A stretch of DNA of 64,000 nt. Source: Limisphaerales bacterium. GTDB lineage: Bacteria > Verrucomicrobiota > Verrucomicrobiia > Limisphaerales > JADLHS01. Position 1 is the first letter of the stretch. Every line of letters starts with the position of its first letter. The notes under the pieces are model-generated. The model was not told the origin of the DNA, searched no databases, and saw only the letters and a program-made list of their open reading frames with translations. The DNA lies in contig JBGAIM010000010.1 of NCBI GenBank assembly GCA_044225555.1, forward strand, positions 9,457 through 73,456, written 5' to 3'. Shown here piece after piece: positions 11,411-40,014 of this stretch. A program made the position numbers and the translations under genes.

Positions 11411-14400
11411 TCACGGTGAAACCACCCGGTAGAAGCGGTGCGGGAAGTTGGTGGCGGTGCGGTCTAGGAAACTGTAATTTGTCACACTCGCCACGAAGTT
11501 GGTCAGGTCCAGCCAGAGAATGGGAGTCGCTCCGAGGTTGGTCGTGGCTTGCACGCGATAGTTTTGGCCAATGGCCAGGGAGATATGAGCGTTGAAACCC
11601 GTACTCGTCAGCGTGACCGGCGAGGTAAACGTGGGAATCGCCGGGCCATTGGTGGCCAATAGCGCGAGGCTGAATTCGCTCGTGTCGCCGGTGGTTTGAT
11701 CCGTGGCGGTGGCGGTGATGTACTGCCCGGCGAAATTACCAGCGGCGGTCAGGGTGAACGCCGCGCTGCCGCCGCCGCTGGTGGTGGTTATTGTGCTGCC
11801 GATGTAGTTCTGACCCTCGCCGTAACCTGATGAATCCGCAAAGCTGCTGCGATACACATCCACGAGCATGGTTCGGCCAGGCGCGCCGTTCAGTGTGCCG
11901 GAAATGATAGTGCTGGCGCCGCTGCCAGCGGCCTGGGTGAGGACCGGATAATTTTGCAGGTTGTTTGGGCCGGTATCAGGATCGCCCGGATCGTTGACCG
12001 TGACTCCGGAAAAATCCTCCACGCCGCCGGCAAGGTTGATGCCGAGATAGCCGTTGGAGTAAACATTGTTTCCGCGCAGGCTGTTGTTCGTGGTCGCGGC
12101 ATCAAAGAGGACAATGCCCATAAAGGCGTTCAACGCGATGGTATTGCCCGCGCCCGTGTTGTTTGACGCCAGGCCAATGAGGTTACCACTGGCCCCGCCA
12201 TAAAGTGAAACGCCGTCCCAGCCGTTGCCCAGCGGTTGCGCGCCGGTGGCGCTCAATCCAACCAAGTTGCCTTGGACATTGTTGCCCGAGGTGCCCGTTC
12301 CACTTAGGGTCACGCCGTAGTTGGCGTTGCCCGAAATCACATTCCCGGCATTGGCCGCGCTGCCGCCAATCACGTTGCCCTGGGCGCCGCCATAAAGGGC
12401 TACACCAGACCAGCCGTTGCCAAGAGCCTGGGTGCCGGAGACGTCCACGCCAACATAATTTCCAGCGACGACATTCCCATCCGTCCCGGAGTAGCCGATG
12501 AACAGTCCGTAATTGGTGTTGCCGGAGATGAGATTGGCCGCGCCCGTCGTTGTGCCGCCAATGAGATTGGAAGTCGCGCCGCTAAAAATCTCGATGCCGG
12601 ACCAGCCATTGCCCATGGCCGCGGTCCCGGCGGGATTCAAGCCGATGTAATTTCCCGCCACAACATTCCCGGAAGTGTTCGCATCCGAAAGAGCGATGCC
12701 CTGAAACGTGTTTCCCGAGATGATATTTCGGGCGTCGGAGGTTGCGCCGCCGAGAGTATTTGATTGCGCGCCGCCGAAGAACTGGATGCCGGACCAACCG
12801 TTAGGCACAGCCGCCGACCCCGCGGCATTGAGTCCGATGTAGTTTCCCGCAATGACATTCCCCACGGTGCCGGGGTCGGACACGGTCGCGCCCTGCAGCG
12901 TGTTCCCGGAAATGAGATTCCGCGCGGCGGCGCTCGTGCCACCGATCAGATTGGACTTCGCGCCGCCGAAAATCTGAAGGCCGGCCCAGGCATTTGGCAG
13001 GGCGGCGTTGCCCGCTGGGTTCAGTCCGATGAAATTTCCAGCGACCACATTGCCGGTCGTATTCGTCCCCGAAATGGCAACACCCTGTTTCAAGTTTCCT
13101 GAAATGATGTTGAGAGCGGTGTCCGTGGTGCCGCCAATGGTATTGGCTTGCGCCCCACCGTAAATCTCCAGCCCGGCCCAGGCGTTGGGGAGCGCAGCAC
13201 TGCCTGCGGCGTTCAAGCCGATGAAGTTTCCCTGAACCAGATTGCTGCGCGTGCCGGTGTCGCGAATAACCAATCCTTGATACGCGCTGCCGGAAAGGAC
13301 ATTGCGCGCGGCGACATTCGTTCCGCCGACGGTGTTGCCGCTCGCCCCGCCGGAAATGATCAGCGGATTGTATTTATTGGTGACGGCAGAAGTGCCGGTG
13401 GAATCCAAACCAAGATAACAACCGCGAACGACGTTGCCGCTGGCGTTCGTTCCATCAATGACAATGCCGGAGCCGGGAAAGCCATTCACAATGAGCGACT
13501 GCACCACGCAGTTGGTGCCGAGCAGTCGCAAGCCGTCCACATAGACGCTGACCGGATCGCACAATGCGCCGTTCAGAACAATTTCCGGCCCGCTGGGATT
13601 TGTGTTGGTCGGTTCGCTGCTGCCGTCGAGGAACGTGGCGTTTCGCAACGCGGGCAGGCTGTCAGTCGGTTGGATCGTGAAAACTCCGCCGGCAAACCCC
13701 GGGTCGCTGGTGGGGATGTTGAAGGTAACGGTAGTGCCCGGATGATCGAGCGCGTAATACAACGCGGCACGCAGGCTGCCCGGTCCGCTTTCAAGCGTGT
13801 TGATCACCACGCTGCTCAAAGCCGGGCCGGCCCCATACTTTGCCGCCATGCCCGCGCGATCACTCACACTCAATACGGGTTCGTATTGCTGGCCCATCAC
13901 GTTGAGAAATTGCGCAAAAGCGGGCACGGGTTCGATTGTGTTTAAGGTTGGCGGATTCACCGAGAAGGCATCCCGGCGATAGTGCATCACCGAATAGAAA
14001 TCATAGGTCCCCGTGTTGAGGGTGTTGCCGAGTTTCACGAAATTGCCTTCACTGCCCGGGAGGATATTGTTAGTCAAAATCACCACGAACGCATCACGGT
14101 CCGAGCGTTGGTGCTCATGGACGAGGCCCAGGGTATGGCCGAGTTCGTGGCAGATGGTGGCGCGATTCCAAGCACCGGGACCAATCTTCAAGAACTGTTG
14201 CCCACCAACCATGCCCACGGCGGATTGCCCGCCACCCAGGGTGGGATCCTCCAGGACGGTAAAATAATTGGGCTGCGACGTGCGCGGGATGAAATGCAGA
14301 TTGGCGAACATGGCCCACTCGGCGGCGCCATCCAGGAAGGCCTTTTGCTTGGCCGCCGAAACCGAGGCGTCGAAGGTGTAATACAGATTGCCACCCGTCC

Positions 14401-14680
14401 AAGCCGGCGCGACTCCGTCGAAGGCGAAGCCGGGTACCGACTCGCCCGCGATTTGATTTCGCCACGTGCGCAGGTTCGTCACGAGGATCTCCATATCGCC
14501 GACCGGGGCCAGCTTCTGATCAGCCGGGACTGCGGCGATGATTTTGTCGAGCAGCGCCACGTTCCAGTTCGTGGCCGGATCCGCCGTGGCGTGATTTGCC
14601 ACAGCGACGAGCGCCGCACCAAAAGTTGCAATCCGCAAGCCGAGTCGTGCCGACGGTTTGATACGCTTTAGCGATTTCAT
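11411..14680 (-). CDS. secreted astacin-family (M12A) zinc metalloprotease fused to a long parallel beta-helix repeat region and a C-terminal F-Y-R domain
   Basis: 'HELGHTLGLVHEHQRSDRD' matches HExxHxxGxxHE, and the Met-turn 'SVMHY' is present. About seven ~64-aa repeats follow ('GN[FY]IGLN.AG..A.PN.W.G..I.GGA..N.IGG....A.N.ISGN...G'). The ATG at 14680 gives 'MKSLKRIKPSARLGLRIATFGAALVAVANHATA'; the track start at 14704 is TTG. Confidence 0.85.
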   Translation of the reverse strand: MKSLKRIKPSARLGLRIATFGAALVAVANHATADPATNWNVALLDKIIAAVPADQKLAPVGDMEILVTNLRTWRNQIAGESVPGFAFDGVAPAWTGGNLYYTFDASVSAAKQKAFLDGAAEWAMFANLHFIPRTSQPNYFTVLEDPTLGGGQSAVGMVGGQQFLKIGPGAWNRATICHELGHTLGLVHEHQRSDRDAFVVILTNNILPGSEGNFVKLGNTLNTGTYDFYSVMHYRRDAFSVNPPTLNTIEPVPAFAQFLNVMGQQYEPVLSVSDRAGMAAKYGAGPALSSVVINTLESGPGSLRAALYYALDHPGTTVTFNIPTSDPGFAGGVFTIQPTDSLPALRNATFLDGSSEPTNTNPSGPEIVLNGALCDPVSVYVDGLRLLGTNCVVQSLIVNGFPGSGIVIDGTNASGNVVRGCYLGLDSTGTSAVTNKYNPLIISGGASGNTVGGTNVAARNVLSGSAYQGLVIRDTGTRSNLVQGNFIGLNAAGSAALPNAWAGLEIYGGAQANTIGGTTDTALNIISGNLKQGVAISGTNTTGNVVAGNFIGLNPAGNAALPNAWAGLQIFGGAKSNLIGGTSAAARNLISGNTLQGATVSDPGTVGNVIAGNYIGLNAAGSAAVPNGWSGIQFFGGAQSNTLGGATSDARNIISGNTFQGIALSDANTSGNVVAGNYIGLNPAGTAAMGNGWSGIEIFSGATSNLIGGTTTGAANLISGNTNYGLFIGYSGTDGNVVAGNYVGVDVSGTQALGNGWSGVALYGGAQGNVIGGSAANAGNVISGNANYGVTLSGTGTSGNNVQGNLVGLSATGAQPLGNGWDGVSLYGGASGNLIGLASNNTGAGNTIALNAFMGIVLFDAATTNNSLRGNNVYSNGYLGINLAGGVEDFSGVTVNDPGDPDTGPNNLQNYPVLTQAAGSGASTIISGTLNGAPGRTMLVDVYRSSFADSSGYGEGQNYIGSTITTTSGGGSAAFTLTAAGNFAGQYITATATDQTTGDTSEFSLALLATNGPAIPTFTSPVTLTSTGFNAHISLAIGQNYRVQATTNLGATPILWLDLTNFVASVTNYSFLDRTATNFPHRFYRVVSP
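12035..13423 (-). repeat. tandem coding repeats, ~192-nt (~64-aa) period, ~7 units (beta-helix turns)
   Basis: Repeat units start at residues 428, 492, 556, 620, 685, 748 and 812 of the track ORF numbering, giving periods of 63-65 aa. Coordinates are converted from residue positions. Confidence 0.7.
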
Positions 14681-14791
14681 CCGTCGCACTGTAAGCCGGG
14701 ACAAAATCCCTGCAAGGGCGAAGTCGCCTTTGTCTGGACTGCCTGTCGGCGGCTTCGACGGCGAGAGGCCGGAGATTTGTCGAAGCGATTT

Positions 14792-15760: not shown

Positions 15761-15852
15761 CCTTTGTTTCTAACCCAGACACTGGGGCTTGGCCAGACCG
15801 GATTAAGGTGTTTCTCTGTCGATGCGGGAATCGATTGCGGTGATTGGCCGGT

Positions 15853-18468
15853 TCACGGCATCCAGCGCAATCGGTAAAACGCCGTCGCGGCTGGTCCGCT
15901 CAAATCGTGAAAGTCATCCGCATACTCAAACACTCCGTTCGCTGGGGCGATATTGGTGGAAATCGTTGTCCAGTTCATCAAGTCGGTCGAGCGCTCCAGA
16001 TAATATGTCCATCCGGGGCGACCGGCAAAATTCAGGGTCATCGGATTGCCGGTGCCGCTCGGGTAACTCGTGAAACGCCCCGTCGGGCTCGACGCAATCT
16101 GTACCGCTCCCGTAACACTGCCGCCGTGGCCATCGTCGGCGGTGTAAGTGAACTGGTCGGCGACACTGAGGTAGTTCGAGTAGTAAATGAAGGTGCTGTT
16201 TGTGAGCAGCGTGATTCCATTGGTCGTCGTCAGATTGATCCCGGTCAGGGAAATCGTGTCACTATCGGCATCAGTGACGGCGGCCGTAAGGCTCGCATAC
16301 GGTATTTCCAATACAACGGGAGCATGGTTTGTGAATGAGAGGGGATTCGCGACCGGATGACGATTCACTTTGATGGTGCCATTTGCGGTCAGCGAATCAG
16401 TGTGCCAATTCAAGCCGCCCGCAAGCGCCGGAAGGTCGATGGCCGTGAATGCGCCGGAGAATGCGCCCGCCCCAAAATTGGTAAACACCTCGCCTCCGAC
16501 CACCGCCGCGCCCACATTTGTAATCACCAAAGTGCCACCGTAATTCAGAGTTCCGCCGGACAGGACAATTTTATCGGCAAGCGAAGAGCCGTTGTTTCGA
16601 TCAATCCGCAACAAGATGTTGCCCGCAAGCGCCGGGGCGCTGTTCAGCGTCAGCTTGCCGATGGCGGAACTTGTGCCGGGCGAAATCGTGCCGCCACTAT
16701 TGACAGTGACAACGCCCGCAATCGTGCCCGTCCCGCCGAGGATGCCACCATCCACCGTGACTCCGCCACTGCCAGTGCCCGAGCCAGTGCTGTTGTTGAC
16801 GAGCAGCCTTCCCGCGCCAATGACGGTGCCGCCGGCATAGGCGTTTACTCCGGTTATCCGCAGGGTTCCCGGCCCGGTCTTGGTGAGGGCGCCGTTGATG
16901 ACGGGCACCTCCACTGACAAATCCACTTCCGCCGGTCCGTTGGCGACATTCCACGAGCGGTTTCCGCCAGCAAGGTCAATCAGACCGGAACTGCCCGCCC
17001 CGGCGCCTTTCCCAATGGTGGCCGTGGTATTGGTGAATGAGCTGAAAGTGGCATCTCCGTTCACGAGCAGCTTTGCCGGTGCGGCGGCATTGGGCATCAG
17101 ATTGATGGTGTTGAAAGTCAGTGCGCCGCCGCTGAGCGTGAAGGTGCGAGTGGCGTCCACTTGCAGCGTGTGGAGGCTCAGGCTGCCGCCACTGAGGGTG
17201 ACCGCGCCCGAAAACTGCGCGGCGTTGGTCGTGGAATCCGGAGACGGGACGTAATTAACGGTCAGGGAGCCGCCAGTGATGTTCAACGCCTCGCGAACAT
17301 AAAGCTTGCGGATGTTGTGCGTTCCGGATGCCAGAGTCACGGTGATGTTCGTGTTGGGGCGATCCAGAATGACCGTGTCGTTTTGGCCAGACGTCACGCC
17401 AGAGCCAGCCGCTCCCGGTAGGCGCGGCGTGGGTAGCGTCAGCGTGCCGACGGGCGGGACTTGTCCGGGGCCAGTCACCGGTGCCATCGGCGGCTGCCCG
17501 CTGTTCCAGTTGGCCAGCGTCGTCCATTGACCGTCGCTGTCGTTCAGCCAGATGGCGGGAACGAGTTGGTCCTTTAGAAACTCGAGGCCACCGCGCGCGA
17601 CATCCAGGTCGAGATTGCTGCCGCCGTTGTTGTAACTCGGCAAGCGGCCGGTGCTGGCGTATTGCCAGAACGTCCAAGGATGCGTGACGCCGTAATCATC
17701 CCACGGTCCGTAGATGGCAGCGTAGGAGTCCTTCGGTTCGCCGTTCTGCACATCAATGGAATTCGGGTCCGCTTGATTCGGCCAGCGCGCGCTCCACAGC
17801 GTTGGATACGCGGGCGCTGCCAGATTGGGCGGGCTGCCCGAAGGTTGAGCGATCTGATTTCGCAGCGAGGCCGAGGCGCCGCCGACCACAAAGGCGGCGT
17901 AATTGCCGTTGATGTAAATGGCCGGGCGGATACCCATCACGGCGTAGATGCGGCTGGAAAAGTCGAGGCAGAATTGCGCCATCTCGTCATCGGTACGAAT
18001 GCCGTCGCCAGATTCGAGATCATGCACCGGCAGCAGATAACCGGGCCGCATCCACGGGCCGGCCATCTGCATGAAATGGTCCGCCTCGTCCGTGCCGCTG
18101 TTCCGGATGCCGCCGGAGTTAAGAGTGGTCTCGATAATCTCCGGTCGCGAGAAATGATACGAACCGGCGAACATGCCGGCGGCGGTGGCGCGATTGATGT
18201 TCTGAATGAAATAGGGATCATCGTAGCGCTGCGAGAGCGTGTTCAGTCCCTGCGAGTTGCTCGCATCATTCTGATTGTAGTAGCCGGTCGTGCCGCCGCG
18301 ACTGGAGCGCAGGATGACGAATTGCCGGTTCTCGACACTGTAAATATTGTTCCAGGTCGTTTGCGAGATGTTGCCTTGCCACGCGGAAATGTCGAGACCC
18401 AGAGCCCGCGGTTGCGCCGGGGCGGGGTGGTTTGCCACCAGCAGGGCCGCTAGCATTACCAGTTTCAT
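15853..18468 (-). CDS. secreted GH25 muramidase domain fused to PATR (autotransporter-associated beta-strand) repeats, a cadherin/VCBS-like domain and a C-terminal F-Y-R domain
   Basis: GH25-like 'LGLDISAWQGNI...FVILRSSRGG...AGMFAGSYHF...LLPVHDLE'. PATR-like 'GALTKTGPGTLRITGVNAYAGGTVIGAGRLLVNN'. Cadherin/VCBS-like 'DADSDTISL...DQFTYTADDGHGGSVTGAV'. The start is uncertain: ATG 18468 gives 'MKLVMLAALLVANHPAPA', with alternatives at 18546 and 18654. Confidence 0.7.
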   Translation of the reverse strand: MKLVMLAALLVANHPAPAQPRALGLDISAWQGNISQTTWNNIYSVENRQFVILRSSRGGTTGYYNQNDASNSQGLNTLSQRYDDPYFIQNINRATAAGMFAGSYHFSRPEIIETTLNSGGIRNSGTDEADHFMQMAGPWMRPGYLLPVHDLESGDGIRTDDEMAQFCLDFSSRIYAVMGIRPAIYINGNYAAFVVGGASASLRNQIAQPSGSPPNLAAPAYPTLWSARWPNQADPNSIDVQNGEPKDSYAAIYGPWDDYGVTHPWTFWQYASTGRLPSYNNGGSNLDLDVARGGLEFLKDQLVPAIWLNDSDGQWTTLANWNSGQPPMAPVTGPGQVPPVGTLTLPTPRLPGAAGSGVTSGQNDTVILDRPNTNITVTLASGTHNIRKLYVREALNITGGSLTVNYVPSPDSTTNAAQFSGAVTLSGGSLSLHTLQVDATRTFTLSGGALTFNTINLMPNAAAPAKLLVNGDATFSSFTNTTATIGKGAGAGSSGLIDLAGGNRSWNVANGPAEVDLSVEVPVINGALTKTGPGTLRITGVNAYAGGTVIGAGRLLVNNSTGSGTGSGGVTVDGGILGGTGTIAGVVTVNSGGTISPGTSSAIGKLTLNSAPALAGNILLRIDRNNGSSLADKIVLSGGTLNYGGTLVITNVGAAVVGGEVFTNFGAGAFSGAFTAIDLPALAGGLNWHTDSLTANGTIKVNRHPVANPLSFTNHAPVVLEIPYASLTAAVTDADSDTISLTGINLTTTNGITLLTNSTFIYYSNYLSVADQFTYTADDGHGGSVTGAVQIASSPTGRFTSYPSGTGNPMTLNFAGRPGWTYYLERSTDLMNWTTISTNIAPANGVFEYADDFHDLSGPAATAFYRLRWMP

Positions 18469-18687
18469 TATCGCACTGCGGGACAAATCCCACACCCGAC
18501 CGATGCGGCGGCCCCAATTGTTCCGGCTGATGAAAAGTTGGCTCATGCGAAATGGCGCTAAACTAACGCGCCCTGCGCGTTGCGACAAGGGGAAGGACAG
18601 CTCGGCACCATTACATGAACATGTTGACCCGCTTCCACCGCTGCCGGACGCCAACAGGTCTGCGCGTTCGGCCGCGGCTGCTCGAGT

Positions 18688-19350: not shown

Positions 19351-19374
19351 GTTTGATCAAGGACGTCGGATACC

Positions 19375-19542
19375 TCAGCGGCCCGCTCGCGTGACCTCCT
19401 CCGCGATGATCTGCAGGCCCTCTCGCCGACCGAGATTGTCCATCAACTCCAGCATGCCGCTGTGCCCGGCTAGTTTGACGCCGGCGAGCGAGAATTCCGG
19501 CCCCGCCGGATTCCCACTGGTTTTGAACTTTTGCGGAGACAT
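19375..19542 (-). CDS. small hypothetical protein (55 aa), tentative
   Basis: An ATG at 19542 opens 'MSPQKFKTSGNPAGPEFSLAGVKLAGHSGMLELMDNLGRREGLQIIAEEVTRAGR'. It fills the only gap between the sulfatase and TRIC genes and its third codon positions look GC-rich like its neighbours. No family recognised. Confidence 0.3.
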   Translation of the reverse strand: MSPQKFKTSGNPAGPEFSLAGVKLAGHSGMLELMDNLGRREGLQIIAEEVTRAGR

Positions 19543-19565
19543 GGCGATCCTGCGGACGAGCCTAC

Positions 19566-21086
19566 TCACTCCTCGACCCCAGGCGAAGCCTGACGAATCT
19601 TGTCGAGCTGCTCGGAGAGCGCCCCGGTTCGCGCCGGTTGTGGTGTGGCGAGATTGTTGGTTTCGCCTCTGTCGGCATCTACCCGGTAAAGCTCCGGCTT
19701 TGCGCCTGGCGGCTTCGCGTTTCGCGGCGGGGTGGCGAGCTTCCAAGAATTGCTGCGAACTCCCAGCCGGTTGAAACCATCATGTTCCACAAGCAGTGTC
19801 CGGCCAGTTTGGGTTTCACCAAGTAGCGCCGGCAGGACATTCTGGCTATCAGGCGCTTCACCCGATGGAAAGGTCTCATGGTTTAGGGTGGCAAAGGATT
19901 TCAACAAATCCACCTGACAAATGAGGGCGTCCGAGAGTCCAGGTTTGACCCGTCCTGGCCAGCGAACCAGAAATGGAACGCGCGTGCCGCCCTCGTAGAT
20001 GCTGTATTTGCCGCCCCGCAGCGGGCCGGCCGGTTTGTGCCCGTTCAAATCGCGGACCGCGCCGTCGGCGTAACCGTCATCTAGGACCGGTCCATTGTCG
20101 CTGGACAGAATGACCAGTGTATTGGTCGCCAGATGCAACCGATCAAGTGCCGCTAGAACTTCGCCCACGCACCAGTCGAGCTGCACGATCACGTCGCCGC
20201 GCACACCGCAACCACTCTTGCCGACGAAGCGCGGATGCGGCACGCGCGGCACGTGCGGGTCGTGCGTGGCAAAGTAGAGGAAGAAAGGTTGGTTGGTGTT
20301 GCGTTCGATGAAGCGTACCGCCTGTTTGGTGAACGTGTCCGCCATGTCCTCGTCCTTCCAGCGCGCTGCTTTGCCTCCAGTCATGAAACCAATGCGGCTG
20401 ATGCCGTTGATGATCGTGCCGTCGTGACCGGCGGTCAGGCCCATTCTCAGCAATTCCGGGTGTTGCTTGCCGGTAGGTTCGTCGCCGATGGGTTTGCCGT
20501 AGCTCACTTGGATGGGATCCGCCGGATCTAACCCCACCACCCGATGATCCTCGATGTAAACACACGGCACGCGGTCGCCCGTCGCTGCCATGATGAAGCA
20601 GTAATCAAATCCAATCTCCAGCGGACCGGGCGCGACGACTCCATTCCAGTCCGCGCCGCTGGGTCCGCCCAAACCCAAATGCCACTTGCCGACCACGCCA
20701 GTGCGGTACCGCGCCTTTTGCAGGATTCCGGGCAGGGTGATGTGATTGGTGGGGATGATGAGGGAAGCGTTGCCAGGCAGAATACCGGTCCCCTTTTTGC
20801 GCCACGGATATTCCCCGGTAAGCAAGGCATAACGCGATGGGGTGCAAGTCGCCGACGTGGCATGCGCGTCGGTGAAGCGCAGCCCTTCACGAGCCAGGCG
20901 GTCTATATTGGGAGTCGCAATCTTCGTCGCGCCGTAGCAGCCGACATCGCCATAGCCGAGGTCGTCGGCAAGGATCAAAACGATATTCGGCGACGACGGT
21001 CTGGTGGCTGCGTTACTTGACGGGACACCAACGATTCCGAGCACAACAAAAACCACCAATCTTGATAGCGTGTTCATGTGACTCAA
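19566..21086 (-). CDS. arylsulfatase-family sulfatase (Cys-type, formylglycine-dependent)
   Basis: Signal peptide, 'LILADDLGYGDVGCYG', and the active-site box 'CTPSRYALLTG' (C-x-P-x-R). Confidence 0.9.
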   Translation of the reverse strand: MSHMNTLSRLVVFVVLGIVGVPSSNAATRPSSPNIVLILADDLGYGDVGCYGATKIATPNIDRLAREGLRFTDAHATSATCTPSRYALLTGEYPWRKKGTGILPGNASLIIPTNHITLPGILQKARYRTGVVGKWHLGLGGPSGADWNGVVAPGPLEIGFDYCFIMAATGDRVPCVYIEDHRVVGLDPADPIQVSYGKPIGDEPTGKQHPELLRMGLTAGHDGTIINGISRIGFMTGGKAARWKDEDMADTFTKQAVRFIERNTNQPFFLYFATHDPHVPRVPHPRFVGKSGCGVRGDVIVQLDWCVGEVLAALDRLHLATNTLVILSSDNGPVLDDGYADGAVRDLNGHKPAGPLRGGKYSIYEGGTRVPFLVRWPGRVKPGLSDALICQVDLLKSFATLNHETFPSGEAPDSQNVLPALLGETQTGRTLLVEHDGFNRLGVRSNSWKLATPPRNAKPPGAKPELYRVDADRGETNNLATPQPARTGALSEQLDKIRQASPGVEE

Positions 21087-21088
21087 CT

Positions 21089-24009: not shown

Positions 24010-24025
24010 AAGCGGGAGGTTGAGG

Positions 24026-25216: not shown

Positions 25217-25220
25217 AAAT

Positions 25221-26708: not shown

Positions 26709-26719
26709 AGACGGGAGGC

Positions 26720-27625: not shown

Positions 27626-27640
27626 TTCTAGGTTTGTAGG

Positions 27641-27964
27641 TCAAATACCGGTCGGTTGGTCGTGCGTGGGCACTTGAATCTTGCGTTTCGCTGGATCAGC
27701 CTGCTGGCGATAGAGCAGCACCACGTGACCCACGCGTTGCACGAGGACGCTGCTGGAGCGTTCAGCCAGTTGTGGTGCGAGTTGCTTCTTCTCCTCTTTG
27801 TGCGCGTGGAGTTTCACTTTGACCAGCTCCTGATTGTCGAGAGCCTGATTCAAGCTCGCGAGCAACGCGTCCGTCAAACCCGCTTGCCCGAAGTGAACGG
27901 TGGGTTCAAGTCGCTGGCCAAGTCCGCGCAAGTAGGCAATTTGCTTGGTGCTGAGTTCGCTCAT
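27641..27964 (-). CDS. yhbY: CRM-domain RNA-binding protein YhbY
   Basis: 'LSTKQIAYLRGLGQRLEPTVHFGQAGLTDALLASLNQALDNQELVKVKL' is the typical YhbY/CRS1 pattern. Confidence 0.8.
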   Translation of the reverse strand: MSELSTKQIAYLRGLGQRLEPTVHFGQAGLTDALLASLNQALDNQELVKVKLHAHKEEKKQLAPQLAERSSSVLVQRVGHVVLLYRQQADPAKRKIQVPTHDQPTGI

Positions 27965-27971
27965 GCGAGCA

Positions 27972-30226: not shown

Positions 30227-30242
30227 GAAGAGCGGTTGCGCT

Positions 30243-31268
30243 TTAGCTCCAATTCAAAACCACCTTGCCACACTCGCCTTTGCTCATCGCGGCGAAGCCT
30301 TGCTCGAATTCCGTGTAGGGCAGCCGATGCGTGATCACCGGGGTGATGTTCAAGCCGCTCTCCAGCATCACGGTCATTTGATACCACGTCTCATACATTT
30401 CCCGGCCGTAAATGCCTTTGATCGTGAGCATGTTGAAAACGACCTTGTTCCAATCAATCGCCATCTGCTCCGAAGGAATGCCCAACATGGCGATCTTTCC
30501 GCCGTGACACATGTTGTCGATCATGTCGCGAAACGCCGTCGGATTGCCGGACATTTCCAAACCGACGTCGAAACCTTCCTTCATGCCCAGTTGCTTTTGC
30601 ACATCCGCCAGCTTGCCGTTCTTCACGTTCAACGCCACGGTGGCGCCCAGCTTCTTCGCCAGGTCGAGACGATAATCGTTCACATCCGTAATCACGACGT
30701 GTCGCGCTCCGGCGTGCTTCGCAATGGCAACGGCCATGATGCCAATCGGGCCCGCGCCCGTGATGAGCACGTCCTCACCCAGCAAATCAAAAGAGAGCGC
30801 CGTATGCACCGCGTTGCCGAACGGGTCGAAGATCGAAGCCACGTCCAGGTCCACGCCGGGCGATTGATGCCACACGTTGGTCATCGGCAGGGAAAGATAT
30901 TCCGCGAATGCGCCGGGGCGATTCACGCCCACGCCCTTGGTGTCCGCGCACAAGTGTCGGCGGCCCGCCATGCAATTGCGGCAGCGACCGCAGACCACGT
31001 GGCCTTCACCGCTCACGATGTCGCCGACGCGGAAATCATTCACGTTGGCGCCGATCTTGACGATTTCACCGACGAACTCGTGTCCCACCACCATTGGCAC
31101 GGGGATGGTTTTTTGGGCCCAGGCGTCCCACTTGTAGATGTGCAGGTCCGTGCCGCAAATGCCGGTGCGCATCACGCGAATCAACACATCGTTGATGCCG
31201 ATGCTGGGTTCAGGAACATTTTCGAGCCAGAGACCGGGTTTACTTTCCTTTTTGACGAGGGCTTTCAT
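30243..31268 (-). CDS. tdh: L-threonine 3-dehydrogenase
   Basis: '[70 protein letters not shown]' is the zinc-ADH Tdh pattern. Confidence 0.9.
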
Positions 31269-31475
31269 AAAGCGTTGGTTGTTAGCCTAGGCAAACCCGT
31301 TAGCGCAAGCCATCACACATTCGGGGGGCCTGCGGAAGGGAGAGCCAAACAAGCAACTTGCAAAACCCCCACTCCCAACGAGAATCGCCCCATGCAGCAT
31401 CGAGCCAAGCCAAACCGATCCTTGGTAGGTCAAACCCACGTTTGGCCTACTCTCTGTCAGGGCTCATCACACTTC

Positions 31476-32058: not shown

Positions 32059-35000
32059 TCACGGCAAACCGACGGCACGGAAGAACTGCTGGGCGTTCGT
32101 CATTGGCGCGGACAATGTGAAAGGTGACGTTGCCAACGAAGCCAGGTCAGCGAAAACCTGCCAGGAACTTACCAGGTCGGTTCGCGAGTCCACCCGATAG
32201 TGCCCGCCGACGGTGCCCGTCAGTGTTAGATCGAGATTGGTGCCGGTGGCAGCCGCCGTCAGCGCCGGCGTGGCGAGCAACGGTTGAGTTACGGTGAGGT
32301 TGAAGGGAGTTGAACTCATTACAGAGCTGCCATCGTAAATGACCTGCGCCAGCAAGGTGTATTGACCCATGGGGACATTGCTCCAAACCAAACTGAAAGG
32401 AGCAGTGGCGGTTTCGCCCAATAGGATCGGGCCGTTGAAGAATTGCACTTTGCTGATGGCGTGACCATTGGCGGTGACAGTGGCGGCGAGCGGGATGTCG
32501 GTGTTGCCGGGGAAAACGGCGCCCGTGACCGGGCTGGTGAGTTGCACCGCGGGCAAGGCGGTTTGCGAGGCGGAGAACAAGGCCGTGACCTCCGTCGGCG
32601 TCAGCGTGCGATTGAACAAGGCGACTTCATCGAGGAATCCGTTGAGCCGCCGAGTGGAGGAATTGGGGTCGTAACCGAAATAGGTCGTGCCGGGGAAAGT
32701 CTGCGCCGCATGCGTGACGTTGTTGGTGGCCGAACGCAGAATCGAGTTCGTGCCGCGATACATGATGGCGCGCGTGGGCTCGATGGTGAGCGCGAAGAAG
32801 GTCCATTGGTTATCGGGCACGGTCAGGCCGGAGTTCCAGTTGTAGGTGTTGCCGCCGTCGTTCCATGTGTAGCGCAACTCCTGCGCGGTGCCGAAATGCA
32901 CGCCCGCCGTGGTGCCGCCGGATCGACAGAACACGATGCCGGACCAGGACACTTGCGTGCCGTTGCGCCGCACCCAACCGCTGAAGGTGAAATTGGTGGT
33001 ATTCAGGTTAAACGCGGGAATCGCGACGCTGCTGTCGGTGCCGTTGAACTGGGCGGAGAGATTTCCCGGTTCAAAGCCGGCAAAAGGCGAGCCCACTCCG
33101 GCCGCGCCGAAAATGATCCCGCCTTGCCCGGTGCCGTCGCGCGTGCCGATGGCATCGGCGGCAATCGGCCCGGCGTCATTCAACCGCCAATACGCGAGCG
33201 GTCCGGTCGCCAGGGTTTGCGAGAAATACGGTGGCGGCGTCAGGACATTCAACGTAGCGACAGCGCTGGTGACGCTGCCACTGGCGTTGCTCAGCACGAC
33301 GCGGAAGAGTCCGGAGTTGGTGGGCTGCACATTGGTAAGGCTGAGCGAAACCCCGGTGGTGCCGGCGAGGGGAACACCATTCAACTGCCATTGGTAGGTG
33401 AACGGTGGGTTGCCACTCGGCAATGCCGTGAAGGTCGCGGTTTGACCCACGTAAGCGGTTTCACTCTGCGGGCTGACACTCACGCCGGGTGGTCCGACGA
33501 TGCTGCCGGTAATGCTCACGCTGTCAAAGCTGGCCCAGTGGACATTGGGATTCTGCGACGGGGCGGCGTAGGTAAACAAACCCACGTAGAGCCGCGTGGC
33601 AATGCCCGAGAGTGTGTTGGTCCAGACGGGCGTCCAATTCACTCCGTCCGTGGCCACCGAGGTGGTGAACACCGAGCCGACGCGTTGGAGTTTGAGCCAG
33701 CGCTGTCCGCCCAGACCGCTGGACCAGTAAGGCCCACCGGCGTTCTCCATCGTGTTGTCCTGGTAATGAGTGTCGCTGTTCACGGTGGCGAACACGGCGC
33801 TGTATTGCGAACTGCCGCCATTGCCGAGCGGCGTGCCCGGGGTGGAATTGGTGGACTCGCGCATGATTAAACCGGCTTCCCAACTCGAACTGGGCGTCGT
33901 TCCATCCGGAGCGGCCGCCGGGCTGGTGATGCCGGAGACGCGCGCGATGATCGTGCAATTGCCATCCACCGGGCGGCAGAGAAGGTTGAGTCCATCGCCA
34001 ATCAAGGTGTAAGAGCCGCCGTCAATCTTCGCGCCGTACGGCTGCACATGTTCGCTCGCTCCGGCCAGCAGCCACGGGCTCAGCGGCGGGTTGGTGGTGG
34101 TGACGAAACTCAACGGCGAATCGAGCGTGTAGCTGGTGTTGTAGAACAGCCGGGCGCGAATGGCGTTGTTCGTGGCCGACCAGAAGAACGAATTCAACGC
34201 GTACGGCGGGATGTTGGTTTGTCCCCAGAAACTGTCGCCCACGTAAAACTGGACCTTGTTGATCGTGTTCGCATTTGTCACCACGCTGGCCGTGAGCGCC
34301 ACGTTGGAACTGACAATGGTCGAGCCGTTGCTGGGTGAGGTCAGCGTCAGGGCTGGTTCGCCAGCGGCGGGAACGCGCGACCAGGCGCTCGAGGGCACTT
34401 CGATCTTCGCCTGACCCGGGCCTTCGTATTCCAACGTAAGCTGATCGGTGAGATCGCCCGCATCGCTGTTTTGCGTGTCGAAGAAATACTGCACGTTCAC
34501 GGCGTGTTTTCCGGCGGCGAGGGCGGCCCAGCCGCTGAGCGGGGACGGACTGTGATTGCCGTCGTGGTTGATGGTCAGTGCGCCATCCACATAGAGCTTG
34601 CTGCCGGCACAGGATTTGAGCGTGAAGCTATAGATGCCGTCCGCGGGCACGGTGATAAAGCCCGTGTAGTTGAACGCATAACCGTTGCGACGTCGTCGCG
34701 GCGTGAGGTCGGGATAGGAAACCGCCCCCTGATAAACCGGGGTGAGCGCAGCGAAGTTGGGCATGCTGGACCAGTTGACGCCGTTGTACTGCCAATAGTA
34801 GCTGGTTGCGGATTCGTAGTATTTGTGACCCAGACCGGAAACCGTGACCGGCGGATTGGTGGCAACGTTCAATGCGACGGCTGCAGGGGTGATTAGCACC
34901 GGCGTGTTGGTGCGGTCAAAAATATCCACGATGCTCAGCCGGACATACGGTGTCGCCACCGAGCCGACGTTGAGCAACTGCTGGCGCACCTCGGGGTCGC

Positions 35001-36123
35001 GTTGAAACACGGCCAGAGCAGGGGAGCCGGAATACGCCGGGTTATCGAACACTTCGAGAACGTAACCAAGCTGCGGCGAACTGGTGAGCGGCATTTGCCA
35101 CGCGACGATGACCTGATTGCCGTAGGTTGAGGCGCTGGCGTTCGTGACCAGAATCGGGTCCAAGTCAGCAGTGGTTGGTTGGCTCGCCAGAATCAAACCG
35201 AAGGAAGCGTAGTTGTTTACGGCGGCGATGGTCGTAATGCCCGGCGGCTTGTTGGTGAGCAGGCTGACGGTCGGTTGGTTCGTTGCGACCAGCATGTAGA
35301 GATTGCCAGACGTCGGCGGAAGGTTGTTGGTCACGTTAAACAGGTAGGAACTGCCACTGCACGTCTCGAAAAACGCGGCGGTGGAATTCTCAATCAAACC
35401 GCACGTGCCGTTCTCGCCGAGTTGCCGAACCGACGGCGTGAAAAGTTTCGCCGCGGTCCACGCTCCGTTCTTGTGCGAATAGACATTGCGATAATCGGTG
35501 CGGCGCGGATTGCTGTTACCGTGGCCGAAGTCCTCCTGAAAACCGCTCAGGCCGTTGATGCCGGTGGCACTGAACGGAATCTGCATGGTCGCGATATGAA
35601 ACCAGTTGCTCGTCGCCGGATCGCGCAACCAGCGTCCGGAAAACGCCAGATGCGGCGTGCCGTCGGTGGGTTGCCAGATGCGGAACACTTCGCGATACCA
35701 ACGATTGGTGGTGATGAGCGGCCAGTCACCGGCGACCTTGCCCGACGCGCCTTCGCCCACGTGTGGCGGCGCATACATGTTGGAGGCGCTCCAATACGCA
35801 GTCACTGCGGCGCCTGGCACTGCCGTGCCGCTCGGGGGCCAGAAACTCCAGATGATGCTGCACGGGGGATTGTCGGTGGGCCCGGACGGCATGCCGCCGT
35901 AGAAATAGCACGACCCACCATCCGACCCGGAGATCGTCTGGCTGTAGATGGCGTTGTAAGTGGACTCGGCCCAATACGGCCAGCGCACTTCCTGGATGAT
36001 GCCGTCGGCGCCGGAAGCAGTATTGAAGTTGTGATACTCAGCGCGGGCGCGCGACGGAACGAGCCAAAGAGAGGCCAATAGAAGGCCGGCGGCTAGGTGA
36101 GTTTTGTAGCTGAGCAATTTCAT
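32059..36123 (-). CDS. giant secreted lectin-like protein: DUF3472-like N-domain + PA14 + Ig-like/I-set + LamG + C-terminal F-F-R domain
   Basis: The ATG at 36123 gives the signal peptide 'MKLLSYKTHLAAGLLLASLWLVPSRARA'. DUF3472-like: 'CYFYGGMP...IIWSFWPP...VGEGASGKVAGDWPL...WYREVFRIW...LSGFQEDFG'. PA14-like: 'YAFNYTGFITVPADGIYSFTLKSCAGSKLYVDGALT'. I-set-like: 'FTYQWQLNGVPLAGTT...SGLFRVVLSNASGSVTSAVATLNV'. LamG-like: 'LNGFLDEVALFNRTLTPTEVTALF'. Confidence 0.8.
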   Translation of the reverse strand: MKLLSYKTHLAAGLLLASLWLVPSRARAEYHNFNTASGADGIIQEVRWPYWAESTYNAIYSQTISGSDGGSCYFYGGMPSGPTDNPPCSIIWSFWPPSGTAVPGAAVTAYWSASNMYAPPHVGEGASGKVAGDWPLITTNRWYREVFRIWQPTDGTPHLAFSGRWLRDPATSNWFHIATMQIPFSATGINGLSGFQEDFGHGNSNPRRTDYRNVYSHKNGAWTAAKLFTPSVRQLGENGTCGLIENSTAAFFETCSGSSYLFNVTNNLPPTSGNLYMLVATNQPTVSLLTNKPPGITTIAAVNNYASFGLILASQPTTADLDPILVTNASASTYGNQVIVAWQMPLTSSPQLGYVLEVFDNPAYSGSPALAVFQRDPEVRQQLLNVGSVATPYVRLSIVDIFDRTNTPVLITPAAVALNVATNPPVTVSGLGHKYYESATSYYWQYNGVNWSSMPNFAALTPVYQGAVSYPDLTPRRRRNGYAFNYTGFITVPADGIYSFTLKSCAGSKLYVDGALTINHDGNHSPSPLSGWAALAAGKHAVNVQYFFDTQNSDAGDLTDQLTLEYEGPGQAKIEVPSSAWSRVPAAGEPALTLTSPSNGSTIVSSNVALTASVVTNANTINKVQFYVGDSFWGQTNIPPYALNSFFWSATNNAIRARLFYNTSYTLDSPLSFVTTTNPPLSPWLLAGASEHVQPYGAKIDGGSYTLIGDGLNLLCRPVDGNCTIIARVSGITSPAAAPDGTTPSSSWEAGLIMRESTNSTPGTPLGNGGSSQYSAVFATVNSDTHYQDNTMENAGGPYWSSGLGGQRWLKLQRVGSVFTTSVATDGVNWTPVWTNTLSGIATRLYVGLFTYAAPSQNPNVHWASFDSVSITGSIVGPPGVSVSPQSETAYVGQTATFTALPSGNPPFTYQWQLNGVPLAGTTGVSLSLTNVQPTNSGLFRVVLSNASGSVTSAVATLNVLTPPPYFSQTLATGPLAYWRLNDAGPIAADAIGTRDGTGQGGIIFGAAGVGSPFAGFEPGNLSAQFNGTDSSVAIPAFNLNTTNFTFSGWVRRNGTQVSWSGIVFCRSGGTTAGVHFGTAQELRYTWNDGGNTYNWNSGLTVPDNQWTFFALTIEPTRAIMYRGTNSILRSATNNVTHAAQTFPGTTYFGYDPNSSTRRLNGFLDEVALFNRTLTPTEVTALFSASQTALPAVQLTSPVTGAVFPGNTDIPLAATVTANGHAISKVQFFNGPILLGETATAPFSLVWSNVPMGQYTLLAQVIYDGSSVMSSTPFNLTVTQPLLATPALTAAATGTNLDLTLTGTVGGHYRVDSRTDLVSSWQVFADLASLATSPFTLSAPMTNAQQFFRAVGLP

Positions 36124-36596
36124 TGGTGAGATCAGAGTCAAGGAGCAGAAGTTTTGTGTTCCGGTCATTTCTTCCCATCACTTCGTGGCGGCGGCGACCG
36201 CGGTGGTGGAGGTTTTGAGAAAGTCACGACGGGTGACAACCGGGTCAGCTTGTTTTTTCATGGAACGTACTTTCACCACAGCCCGCAAGACCTGTCAGTC
36301 GCCCGATCGCGGAGCGATTCAGAGTTGTCCAGCCCAGCGCGCCTTGATTGGAGATAACGCCGCAACCAGCGGTCTGGTGACCGGCTATCGGCTGGAACGG
36401 TTGCGCGGGGAAATGTCCGAGTTTGTGAGCAGCCCATGGAGTTCACGGCGGATGCCAGCCCAGTGAAAATCCAGTTGCCCGCCGCGACAAATGCACCCCA
36501 AGTGCAGCACCACGCGACCCAAAGCCATCTGGGTGAGATAAAGTTTCATGAGGGTGAAGCCGGCGGCCAGGGATTCGTGACCGATCGCGGACTAGT

Positions 36597-36953: not shown

Positions 36954-36967
36954 AACCGGCAGTCCCT

Positions 36968-37747
36968 TCAACGTCCGTTCGCGCTGCCCGGATTGCACCA
37001 GACGCTGTTCTTGGCTGTGGACAGCGCGAGTCTTGCCCACTCCTGATACTTCACATATTCAACGGCGCCACTGACGACGATCACGACGCCGCCATTCTTG
37101 CCGTGCCGGCGGCCCAAGGCGCCGTCCACGGTCGGATCCGGGAAGCTTGAACCGTCGTTGTAAGCCGTCCCACCACTCGGGGCGTACTCATTTGGCTCCC
37201 AGGAAATGTAGGCGTCCTGCCGGAAGCTGGAGATCTTGTGACCTTCGTTGATCGCGCCGAAGCCGCAGACCGCTCCGCTCATGATGTAAGTGCCCAACTT
37301 GTTGGCGCGAACCGTGTAGCCCGGCGTGTTGGTGGCCAGATCGGTCGGGCAGAAATATAGGTCCTTGTTTTTGATGTAGGGCCAGAGCAATCCGCCTTCG
37401 TAGGCCAGGCGCGGGTTCATGTTGAAAGGTGCGGCGGCGAGATTGGGGGGAGCGCTGCCCACCGGGGTATAGAGCCAGCCCGGCAGGGGTTGGCCATTCG
37501 CGCCCGTCCATGGCGGATTCCAGTTGGGGTGCGGCAGCTTGTCGGCGAAATCGTTGCTATACATGTGAGCCGCGAGGCCCAACTGTTTGCAGTTGCTCAC
37601 GCACCGGGTGCGATGCGCCTTGTCCTTGGCCTTGGCCAGGGCGGGCAGCAACATGGCCGCCAGGATGGCGATGATCGCAATCACGACGAGCAGTTCGATG
37701 AGGGTGAAACCGGCGCCACGTTGGCGACCATTCAAAGATATGTTCAT
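36968..37747 (-). CDS. prepilin-type N-terminal cleavage/methylation domain protein (type II secretion pseudopilin-like, DUF1559/H-X9-DG-like family)
   Basis: The ATG at 37747 gives '[41 protein letters not shown]', the classic G|FTLIELL leader. The C-terminal '[21 protein letters not shown]' resembles a degenerate H-X9-DG box. The track start at 37777 is TTG. Confidence 0.85.
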
Positions 37748-37911
37748 GGGCTGTTGGTCGGAATTCTTCAGGTTCAAGAATCGAAAAAACTATGCCTGCT
37801 CATTTCTCCGGAAACCATCCCACATTCGGGGGGCTTGGATTGTACAAAACAGCGGCCAGGAATTGCTTCCTGGCCGCTGGGTGATTTTTAACTTCCGTCC
37901 GGATTATCGGC

Positions 37912-40014
37912 TCAAGGTGCCGCCCGGAAGAATCGGGCAGGCTCCGTCGGCAGGAACGGATAGGCGGGGAGCGCTGCGCCGGGGACCGGAGTCCAGGTGG
38001 CCGTCGGACCAAGCGTCGGCGAACTGAGGAGCGTGCCAAATGGCCACGTCACGGAGTTGCCGATGCCCGCCGTACCGAAGTTGTAGCGCAGTTTGAGCGC
38101 CGCGGTGTCCACCAGCGCGTCGCTGGTGAAGACGGAGGTAATTTCGCCCGCAGTGAGAACGCGGTTGTAAATGCGGAAGTCGTCCATCTGGCCGTCATAA
38201 CGCTTCCAGTAACTGTCGTGCGAGCGGCCCAACTCGATCGCTTGCGCGGTCGGCCAAGCCCAGGCGGCCGTGTTGGCCTGCGTGCCCTGAGAGGCGCCGT
38301 CCACGAAGATTTCGATGCTGCCGGAAGCCGATTGATCGTAGGTGACGGCGACGTGGTGCCAGTTGCCGTCGGGCAGATAGCCGCCGGCAAAACTGTTCGC
38401 CCCGCCGGAGCACTGGACGAAGATGTTGCCGGCGTCGTTAAGCACGATCACTGCGCCGGAAGTGGTGCGGCGGTCAAAGATGATGGCGCCTTCATTGCCC
38501 GGACCGGGAACCGGGGCATCCGCCTTCATCCAGAACGTGAAGGTGCCGGTGGTGGAATCAAAGTCCGGACTGGCGTCAACCTTGATCTGACTGTTGTTGG
38601 CCGTGGAGAATACTTCCACGCCCGTGCGGGTCACGGGGATGGCCGCAACATCCGTGCTGGAGGCGAGCCAGGTGGTGAGGTAGTTCGCGCCTTGATGGGG
38701 TGTTCCCACGGGCTTGGAATCCTCGATCATTCCGCCGGGCACAATACCGACGACCAACGGCGCACCGGTGCCAACCATGAAAAGCGCGTTGATCTCGCTC
38801 TGGGTGAGAGCGCGATTGTAAACGGCGAACTCATCCTCCTGGCCGAGATAATTGCGATCGGCGCGGTCGGGTTGGTTGCCGGCGAAGCCCAGCGGCGAGT
38901 AAACCGCCAGAGGGGCGTGGGCCACGGTGTTTACCGACGACTTCAAGGTCAGTCCATCGGACATGTAGAACGTGGCCTTGGTGGGTTCAACCACCATGGC
39001 GACAAACGTCCAAGTGTCTGCGGGAACAACGAGGCCGGAACCCCAACCCCAGTAGTTGCCTTTCCAGTGGTAGCGCAACTCGCCTTGGGGACGACCGCTG
39101 GTGTTCTCAATGTGCATGCCGCCGTCGCCAAGCCAGCAGGGCCAGCCGAGATCGGCCGTTGACGGAGTACCATCACGCTTGAGCCAGCCGGCGACCGTGA
39201 TGGTGTTGACGTTCAGGTCCGGGCAAATTGGGGCGCCGATGTGCCCGTAAGTAGCGCCACTGGTGATGGCAACGTTGGTGGATTCCAAGCCCGGTTGAGT
39301 CGGCGGACGAGGTCCAACCGTGCCCGGCACCACGTCAAACCCGTATGCCCCGTTCCAGGCAGTTCCGAGCGTGCCGCTGTTCACGGGGAATGGCGCCGTC
39401 GGACCGGCCGGATCGTTCAGTCGCCAATAACCAACGGGTGAACTGGCTTGCACCAATGTCCCATAATCGATGCTGCGGGCGGCGTTGGTGCCGTTCTGGT
39501 AGTGCGCGAGAATGTCTTCCGCGCTGAGGGCGGTATTGTAGATGGCCACTTCATCAATGCCCCCCTTGAAGAGCAGCAGGTTGGCGCCGGTATCAATATC
39601 ATTACGTCCACCGAGCCGCATCTGGACGGAGGTGTTGGGGGTGAAGCCCGGGGCGCTCAAATCGGCGCCTTGTTGAACGCCGTTGACATAGAACCTTTGG
39701 ATTCCGGTATTCCCGTCATAAACACCCACCAGATGGGTCCAGACTCCCGGCACCACATCCACGGTTGAACTGATGGTTCGCCCGCTCGCGCCGGAGTAGG
39801 TGCGGAACGACCACTTGGTGGTGGCGTTATGGGCGAAGAACAGGAAACCGTCCGAAGTGCTGGCGCCGCGGTTGTAGAGGGGCGACCGGGCCGAGGTGCC
39901 AATTACCTCTGCTGGCTTGACCCACAATTCGGCGGTGAAGGTGGCCGGGTTCAATGCCGCATCAAACGGGATGTCAATAACCTTGCCGTCGTTGCCCGTT
40001 CTGCCTGAACTCAA
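37912..40014 (-). CDS. 3x LamG (concanavalin-like) repeat protein with C-terminal F-F-R domain; probably the C-terminal part of a frameshift-split gene
   Basis: LamG_3-type endings 'DEVAIYNTALSAEDILAHY', 'DEFAVYNRALTQSEINALF' and 'DDFRIYNRVLTAGEITSVF'. There is no signal peptide, only a TTG 'start', and the frame stays open upstream to 40128. Confidence 0.7.
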   Translation of the reverse strand: MSSGRTGNDGKVIDIPFDAALNPATFTAELWVKPAEVIGTSARSPLYNRGASTSDGFLFFAHNATTKWSFRTYSGASGRTISSTVDVVPGVWTHLVGVYDGNTGIQRFYVNGVQQGADLSAPGFTPNTSVQMRLGGRNDIDTGANLLLFKGGIDEVAIYNTALSAEDILAHYQNGTNAARSIDYGTLVQASSPVGYWRLNDPAGPTAPFPVNSGTLGTAWNGAYGFDVVPGTVGPRPPTQPGLESTNVAITSGATYGHIGAPICPDLNVNTITVAGWLKRDGTPSTADLGWPCWLGDGGMHIENTSGRPQGELRYHWKGNYWGWGSGLVVPADTWTFVAMVVEPTKATFYMSDGLTLKSSVNTVAHAPLAVYSPLGFAGNQPDRADRNYLGQEDEFAVYNRALTQSEINALFMVGTGAPLVVGIVPGGMIEDSKPVGTPHQGANYLTTWLASSTDVAAIPVTRTGVEVFSTANNSQIKVDASPDFDSTTGTFTFWMKADAPVPGPGNEGAIIFDRRTTSGAVIVLNDAGNIFVQCSGGANSFAGGYLPDGNWHHVAVTYDQSASGSIEIFVDGASQGTQANTAAWAWPTAQAIELGRSHDSYWKRYDGQMDDFRIYNRVLTAGEITSVFTSDALVDTAALKLRYNFGTAGIGNSVTWPFGTLLSSPTLGPTATWTPVPGAALPAYPFLPTEPARFFRAAP

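Follow-up and report, generated by a model that had tools for sequence, protein, structure and literature searches.

Three kinds of described C-terminal module come closest to the element reported here. In Bacteroidota, the type A C-terminal domain (CTD) of type IX secretion systems (T9SS; TIGR04183/Por_Secre_tail) is a small, lineage-restricted beta-sandwich that sits at the extreme C-terminus of diverse Sec-exported cargo; the Verrucomicrobiota are a phylum not known to have a T9SS. The PEP-CTERM/exosortase tags, which are common in other Verrucomicrobiota, mark the C-terminus of many secreted proteins per genome, including PATR-repeat proteins (TIGR02601/TIGR02595 descriptions), and are made of a motif, a transmembrane helix and a basic tail. 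The SLH, GW, LysM and choline-binding anchors are terminal on diverse secreted enzymes, occur singly or in tandem and have no transmembrane segment. As far as we are aware, essentially nothing is known of how bacteria of the Planctomycetes-Verrucomicrobia-Chlamydiae (PVC) group, and in particular the Verrucomicrobiota of soil, peat and freshwater, export and display their large repertoires of multidomain exoproteins. Here we analysed a window of 64,000 nucleotides from a Limisphaerales bacterium (assembly GCA_044225555.1, contig JBGAIM010000010.1, positions 9,457 to 73,456), in which four secreted proteins end in a short domain that we refer to as the FYR tail, after its final F-[YF]-R strand. 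An earlier note on this DNA had described these proteins as unrelated giants sharing a candidate lineage-specific sorting or anchoring tag. The tail is a genuine, so far un-modelled module derived from the fibronectin type III (FN3) fold, and it is strongly but not exclusively C-terminal.

The four C-terminal peptides that had been quoted are encoded verbatim on the minus strand and run directly into stop codons, whereas the plus strand at these coordinates yields no meaningful peptide. The tails and the genes that carry them are the following:

11411..14704, minus strand: astacin (M12A) multidomain secreted protein (Pfam Astacin, E=1.2e-33, residues 102-290)
11414..11605, minus strand: long-class FYR tail of the astacin protein, …GQNYRVQATTNL…W…RFYRVVSP, with the stop codon at 11411-11413
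15853..18468, minus strand: GH25 muramidase-like/PATR/Big_9 secreted protein (Pfam Glyco_hydro_25, PATR and Big_9)
15856..16050, minus strand: long-class FYR tail of the GH25/PATR/Big_9 protein, …GWTYYLERSTDLMNW…AFYRLRWMP, then stop (tail profile, 92 bits)
32059..36168, minus strand: DUF3472/PA14/Ig/Laminin_G_3/Big_7 secreted protein of 1369 aa (Pfam; signal peptide MKLLSYKTHLAAGLLLASLWLVPSRARA)
32062..32244, minus strand: intermediate-looking FYR tail of the DUF3472/PA14/Ig/LamG/Big_7 protein, …GGHYRVDSRTDLVSSW…QQFFRAVGLP, then stop
37912..41386, minus strand: disrupted LamG gene, made of a 5' open reading frame (ORF) at 40115-41386 and a 3' ORF at 37912-40014
37915..38067, minus strand: short-class FYR tail of the LamG protein, …VTWPFGTLLSSPTLGPTATWTPVPGAALPAYPFLPTEPARFFRAAP, then stop (short-class profile, 64.9 bits)

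Whether these four C-termini are homologous was at first sight doubtful, and pairwise comparison is indeed the one point that speaks for a chance or compositional likeness: BLASTP among the four tails (in a 4-sequence database) linked only the GH25 and DUF3472 tails (E~1e-3), the other pairs being mostly non-significant, and the LamG tail was not recovered by a hidden Markov model (HMM) built from 3 sequences. A word-indexed search seeded with the tails brought up 68 short proteins sharing the pattern G-x-x-Y-x-L-E-R-S-T-N-L…W…F-Y-R-[LV]-x(2-5)-stop, and each window tail was scored by profiles that excluded its own subfamily or the tail itself. In these leave-out tests the astacin tail was detected at E=2.3e-10 and, once all GH25-like tails had been removed, the GH25 tail at E=5.9e-17; a combined long and short profile built without the LamG and DUF3472 tails recovered both over the full domain length (E=4.2e-10 and E=1.1e-4, respectively). 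The four tails are the top four among the 903 six-frame ORFs of the window, the fifth standing at E=0.37, and HMM scans of these ORFs revealed no additional copy in the window. On the strength of these profiles, the proposal that the four tails form one domain family is confirmed, and the homology is firm because relatives from outside the window were added to the profiles. With leave-out E-values ranging from 1e-4 to 6e-17 in the right register at the C-terminus, dozens of conserved relatives outside the window, and a true tail in 65 of the top 148 library representatives, a chance resemblance is hardly conceivable and is refuted by the leave-out profiles and the outside relatives.

The family comprises two classes, a long one of ~62 aa and a compact one of ~50 aa represented by the LamG type, which is conserved as the last segment of over 40 orthologous and paralogous LamG proteins from metagenomes. 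Both align end to end by hhalign (probability 96.5%, E=8.6e-10). The DUF3472 tail is the most divergent of the four and the weakest member when scored by the long-class HMM alone (E=0.086). Over its first half it resembles the long class (hhalign, E=5e-5), over its second the short class (E=8e-4), so that in sequence it looks like an intermediate between them; an identical tail is present in the ENA contig L001 and in the locus L002 from a metagenome-assembled genome (MAG). The terminal pattern first proposed, F-[YF]-R-x(1-3)-P, holds for its motif; the spacing in the window is x(2-4)-P.

No existing model covers the tail, a question which the earlier note had left open. Neither Pfam (2025 copy) nor NCBIfam 20.0 contains a model that matches the last 50-65 residues, whether full proteins or isolated tails are searched, even at E<=10; for instance, the last ~65 aa of the astacin protein carry no Pfam model at all. 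A canonical tail has no tblastn match among the PLSDB plasmids, the names attached to clusters that bear the tail reflect nothing but the cargo, and literature searches turned up nothing relevant on the motif, on C-terminal sorting in Verrucomicrobia or on DUF1559/LamG. The size of the family cannot be read from the exhaustive library search: its profile of 126 positions included ~50 upstream columns, and the 51,898 proteins retrieved at E<=1e-3 are inflated by giants with Big_9/cadherin-like repeats, so that this number is not usable because of the contaminating Big_9-like columns.

The position of the domain is its most regular property. When trimmed long- and short-class HMMs were run on the six-frame ORFs of the window and of 98 fetched loci (~0.96 Mb), many of which had been seeded with tail-containing or LamG queries, the domain ended at most 6 residues from the stop in 75 of 81 copies, mostly at 0-2 residues. 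The six others comprise two copies lying 16-17 residues from the stop and four internal ones. Bystander matches give a similar picture: of the matches that the query pattern had not selected, the Verrucomicrobiota loci contain 11, 8 of which end 0-2 aa before the stop, and in the LamG-seeded loci all three end 0-3 aa before it. In 61 of the 65 top library representatives that bear a true tail, a copy stops no more than 10 residues before the C-terminus. The end itself is also constrained. In 198 unique terminal tails, 94% of those bearing the triplet have 3-6 residues after the Arg of FYR, and Pro is the last residue in 120 of 194 tails from several subclasses (…RLRWxP, …RVVSP, …RLKKP, …RVGVP, …RAVGLP), an unusual enrichment at the last position of a protein, in a sample of window, locus and library proteins that is weighted towards GH25-type relatives.

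The sequence motifs of the tail fall on successive strands of a beta-sandwich: L-x-W on strand B, G-x-x-Y-x-L-E-x-S-T-[ND]-L on strand C and the C-C' loop, a Trp on C', [FT]-x-D on strand E and the E-F loop, and F-[YF]-R-[LVA] on the tyrosine-corner strand F, so that strands A-B-C-C'-E-F are kept. AlphaFold2 (AF2) folded the GH25 tail, from a 43-sequence alignment, as an all-beta domain of six strands with high confidence (pLDDT 93.2, pTM 0.82). These strands (residues 4-5/10, 16-21, 27-33, 39-46, 52-57 and 70-75 of 77) end with FYRLRW, and none is predicted beyond strand F. The model of the short LamG-type tail, based on a 3-sequence alignment, is unusable (pLDDT 39.7). Foldseek retrieved no significant match to the model in the PDB, the best hit (E=0.03) being among weak, generic resemblances to Ig, FN3 and carbohydrate-binding module (CBM) sandwiches and to the BIg domains of SiiE.

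The clue to the origin of this fold came from weak HMM matches to the tandem repeats of the library protein P0097, 13 of 14 of which match Pfam fn3 (best E=1e-7). Aligned by hhalign with bona fide fn3 repeats, the tail profile reaches a probability of 97.1% (E=5e-11) over template columns 7-66 of 90, from strand A/B to strand F, where Y-Y-Y-R-V in fn3 faces F-Y-R-V in the tail; the FG loop and the G strand of the template have no counterpart. The best sequence match in the PDB, 3mpc ('Fn3-like protein', E=0.003), covers the same span. PF00041 itself detects none of 34 tails even at E<=10, and several carriers bear in addition complete, Pfam-detectable fn3 domains that are internal and distinct from the tail. 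Judging from the profile alignments and the predicted model, the tail is a remote offshoot of the FN3 superfamily that has six strands and no G strand, instead of the seven of a canonical sandwich. In the internal copies of P0058 and P0079, FYR is followed by a short linker and then directly by the next A strand; the lack of a G strand thus characterises the family as a whole and does not result from the terminal position. What is new here is a tail without any Pfam or NCBIfam model or significant PDB fold match, the FN3 superfamily itself being already known.

A kinship with a characterised sorting domain (T9SS CTD A or B, PEP-CTERM, LPXTG, GlyGly-CTERM or autotransporter) was suggested by the homologues of the LamG protein. 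At the slot of the tail, distant ones (L077:2374-10785, L095:5575-6597 and L089:1573-3570; L080, L083 and L088) have either the type A sorting domain of the T9SS (TIGR04183, E=8e-13 and 2e-8) or a hydrophobic stretch with an RRRK-type tail behind it. Thus, in other lineages a known sorting device fills the place occupied by the FYR tail on homologous cargo. The T9SS CTD is, moreover, also an Ig-like sandwich and has a 'GVYLYRL' strand superficially like FYRL. At the sequence level, however, the tail as a divergent member of a known sorting family is very improbable and effectively refuted. TIGR04183 and the other NCBIfam and Pfam sorting models do not match the tails even at permissive thresholds, the positive controls do match TIGR04183, and hhalign gives a probability below 1% for the CTDs of L077, L089 and L095 against both tail classes. 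As had been claimed, the tail sequences contain no transmembrane helix or other hydrophobic stretch, no basic tail or cluster and no PEP or LPXTG motif; they contain no beta-barrel either, and no NCBIfam CTERM model matches them.

The proteins that end in the tail are diverse, in agreement with the statement that the upstream domains are unrelated: the Pfam domains of the cargo differ among carriers, which include, besides the astacin, GH25/PATR and DUF3472/PA14/LamG proteins, I-set Ig arrays, PKD domains with a NosD-like beta-helix, GHL10 glycosidase-like proteins and a DUF5122 propeller. Sec signal peptides are clear in almost all full-length carriers. An extreme C-terminal position on diverse cargo with signal peptides, as in C-terminal sorting domains, is thus what we observe. 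In the window, roughly 17 proteins have a signal peptide by inspection and 4 of them carry the tail; it is absent from the sulfatases, the fucosidase and the DUF1553 protein. The family is concentrated in Verrucomicrobiota, to which almost all the named genomes belong: among 19 tail-bearing loci found in species-representative genomes with the pattern [TN]Y[YF]LERST[ND], 17 are labelled Verrucomicrobiota, Verrucomicrobiia or Limisphaerales, a narrow pattern of this kind showing where the family is common and not where it is absent. The contigs of the two others were binned as Candidatus Limnocylindrales (L017) and Bifidobacteriaceae (L023), and both may be mis-binned. This is likely for L023, which holds an orthologue of the GH25/PATR protein and three GHL10 proteins, each with a tail, and whose gene content looks Verrucomicrobiota-like.

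Taken together, these features suggest, tentatively, that the FYR tail may well be a shared address or anchor handle for Sec-exported proteins. We favour this reading because the module is independent of the cargo, stands last, has a fixed end after its final strand and is replaced elsewhere by a T9SS CTD. After export by Sec, the terminal module would act as a common 'logistics' handle separate from catalysis or binding, and a shared envelope component would read it through the exposed edge of strand F, the free C-terminus and the conserved STNL loop. This reader could pass the folded protein on to an outer-membrane export route, for which the expanded pseudopilin apparatus of these bacteria, similar to a type II secretion system (T2SS), would be the sole nearby candidate, or it could keep the protein attached to the cell surface by non-covalent contacts. 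Internal and tandem copies, which are rarer, would in that case be plain spacers or avidity repeats, as in SLH, GW or LysM modules.

Several observations weigh against such a role. The FN3 fold is commonly a passive spacer. Internal copies exist in the loci (two in L006, one each in L019 and L016), and tandem arrays of 2-13 copies occur in 47 of the 65 library representatives, a count biased towards multi-copy proteins by summed scores, single terminal copies dominating the genomic samples; the tail is thus neither limited to one copy per protein nor never internal, as expected of sorting domains, and differs in this from the single T9SS CTDs. The tail subclasses follow the cargo families (GH25-, astacin-, beta-helix- and LamG-type), which therefore points to vertical co-divergence with the cargo rather than to a uniform signal. 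No conserved cleavage motif was found upstream of the tail, and no secretion, sortase-like or anchoring component linked to it was found in the loci examined. The only recurrent machinery-like neighbour, the pseudopilin discussed below, is restricted to the LamG subfamily and is itself part of a gene family that has expanded hugely. Finally, the taxonomic restriction rests on the narrow pattern mentioned above.

These same points define the most serious alternative, namely that the tail is a passive structural or adhesive module, a six-stranded FN3-like bead serving as spacer, end-cap or weak glycan or protein binder, which came to lie at the C-terminus through gene accretion and vertical inheritance. 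This is a real possibility. It is consistent with the FN3 homology, with the tandem and internal copies (including those of P0058 and P0079, which lack the G strand as well), with the co-divergence of tails and cargo, with the weak Foldseek likeness to CBM, Ig and SiiE BIg domains and with the fact that no machinery has been identified. Generic spacers are mostly internal, though, yet 93% of the copies in the genomic sample are the last domain. The stop codon follows the last strand by only 3-6 residues, with terminal Pro strongly enriched, and the tandem arrays also finish with a C-terminal copy. The presence of the same tail on a protease, a muramidase, lectin-like proteins, beta-helix proteins and Ig arrays likewise argues for a role independent of the cargo. 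The first description of the domain had held that an ordinary internal Ig/FN3 spacer would overturn the idea of a tag, and the outcome is divided: the tail does have FN3 relatives, is repeated in tandem in 2 to 13 copies and is occasionally internal, but the great majority of its copies are C-terminal. The proposal of a lineage-specific sorting or anchoring tag fares similarly, since terminal position, diverse Sec cargo and the predominance of Verrucomicrobiota agree with it, whereas neither sorting machinery nor a cleavage site nor an anchor was found.

Arrays of 4-13 tail-like modules are seen in P0073 (2361 aa), P0079, P0080, P0081, P0086-P0088 and P0097; in these the last copy is the most canonical and still lies at the C-terminus. 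One tandem example belongs to a divergent, Cys-containing subclass and is carried by a protein with a proprotein-convertase domain from a Verrucomicrobiota MAG.

The neighbour that could connect the tail with a secretion apparatus lies between the LamG and DUF3472 tail genes:

36968..37777, minus strand: GspG-like pseudopilin gene (N-terminus matched by NCBIfam TIGR02532 and TIGR01710; prepilin N-terminal cleavage/methylation domain)

Homologues of this gene adjoin short-tail LamG genes in at least 15 loci (L024, L027, L028, L030, L032, L034, L035, L036, L038, L045, L047, L052, L056, L060, L062 and L066), either directly downstream on the same strand or divergently upstream. This conserved adjacency suggests a functional pairing of the LamG protein and the pseudopilin, and a link of the tail to a T2SS-like apparatus is possible. 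It is a lead and not a proof, because pseudopilin genes of this kind are very numerous in PVC genomes.

In a bolder form of the address hypothesis, the FYR tail would be the domain by which a so far undescribed pathway of the Verrucomicrobiota, for export across the outer membrane or for surface attachment, recognises its cargo. It would be a functional analogue of the T9SS CTD that had evolved independently from FN3 by loss of the G strand, would be read by a component of the massively expanded pseudopilin or T2SS-like apparatus, and would mark exoproteins numbering on the order of a hundred or more in each genome, an extrapolation from ~1 copy per 16-30 kb in the window and the Verrucomicrobiota loci. 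So specific a scheme is speculative, and we regard it as possible but less likely than not. The pseudopilin also bears on another explanation, in which the tail would be an assembly or oligomerisation handle whose F-strand edge takes up a beta-strand from another subunit or a scaffold to form fibres or layers, possibly on a pseudopilus. Strand F is an edge strand once G is absent, the short-tail LamG genes recurrently adjoin the pseudopilin, and tandem arrays do occur. We nevertheless consider such a handle unlikely: it is purely inferential, neither a complementing strand nor a partner having been identified, AF2 predicts a confident fold for the domain on its own, and the astacin and GH25 genes of the window have no pseudopilin neighbour.

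The carrier genes themselves call for some corrections of annotation. The term 'giant' is only loosely true of their products, which measure about 870-1370 aa. The TTG starts listed by the gene-finding program for the astacin and GH25 genes are probably wrong. The astacin protein likely starts at the Met at 14680 (MKSLKRIKPSARLGLRIATFGAALVAVANHATA; MKSLKRIKPSARLGL…), which gives a canonical signal peptide; its tail corresponds to ORF residues 1063-1126 in the HMM envelope (64 bits). For the GH25 protein, the most probable start is the Met at 18468 (MKLVMLAALLVANHPAPAQP) instead of the TTG at 18654, because a signal peptide is found there and the N-termini of the orthologues in L019-L023 are conserved. 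What had been called a LamG protein does carry the tail but is only the 3' part of a disrupted gene of ~1160 aa. The 5' ORF (40115-41386) encodes a signal peptide and Ig-like repeats and aligns with residues 30-430 of an intact orthologue of 1194 aa (L024:3196-6777; 64% identity), and the 3' ORF (37912-40014) encodes three Laminin_G_3 domains and the tail. The two are parted by TAATAG stops and a frame change (junction ~40014-40128), and ~32 codons ('KVPV' to 'SNSGS') are missing relative to the intact orthologue. This disruption would be either a pseudogene, a split gene or an assembly error. The window sequence is also matched in the MAG GCA_964550825.1.

Between the tail genes lies a glycan-degradation cluster (window ~19500-31300, minus strand; also in L002), which is syntenic with the MAG contig CAZKBO010000036.1. 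It encodes three sulfatases, an alpha-L-fucosidase that also has an F5/8 type C domain, and a pair of small BPSS1860-like DUF3472 proteins, of which one contains DUF5077 as well; tdh/kbl-like genes are also present. None of its signal-peptide enzymes bears the FYR tail. A second shared C-terminal module is present in the window on the large paralogous ORFs 53559-56990 and 56831-60850 (minus strand), whose near-identical, discoidin-like C-termini (…AEIDIIP and …AELEIIP, then stop) are unrelated to the FYR tail.

If the tail is indeed an address or anchor, it would provide a marker that can be found by HMM, allowing the prediction of surface and secreted proteomes in thousands of MAGs, and a handle for finding the corresponding machinery. 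In any case, a model of the tail would fill a gap in Pfam and NCBIfam and annotate a region that is now blank in many proteins. Even if its role were only structural, the tail defines a distinct six-stranded, G-less variant of FN3 with a strict terminal rule.

Set beside the known systems, the FYR tail shares with the T9SS type A CTD its small beta-sandwich architecture, its place at the extreme C-terminus of diverse Sec-exported proteins and its confinement to certain lineages. It has no detectable sequence homology with this domain, which is single-copy and has seven strands with a K-rich motif on the final one, whereas the FYR tail may be repeated in tandem; and, unlike for the T9SS, neither a translocon nor a sortase was found for it in the loci examined. 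From the PEP-CTERM tag it differs in being a soluble beta domain of ~50-65 aa, devoid of the motif, helix and basic residues that make up that signal. The SLH, GW, LysM and choline-binding anchors are similar to it in their deployment, terminal on diverse secreted enzymes as single or tandem units, but they have other folds, no sequence relation to the tail and are found mainly in monoderm envelopes. Its remote relatives are the FN3 domains of Pfam PF00041 and of 3mpc, with which it has in common the order of the strands and the motifs L-x-W, Y-x-[IL]-E-R-S, W, t-x-y-x-D and Y-Y-R-[VIL]. Compared with PF00041, the tail stops after strand F, is almost always the last domain of its protein and includes a compact class of ~50 aa.

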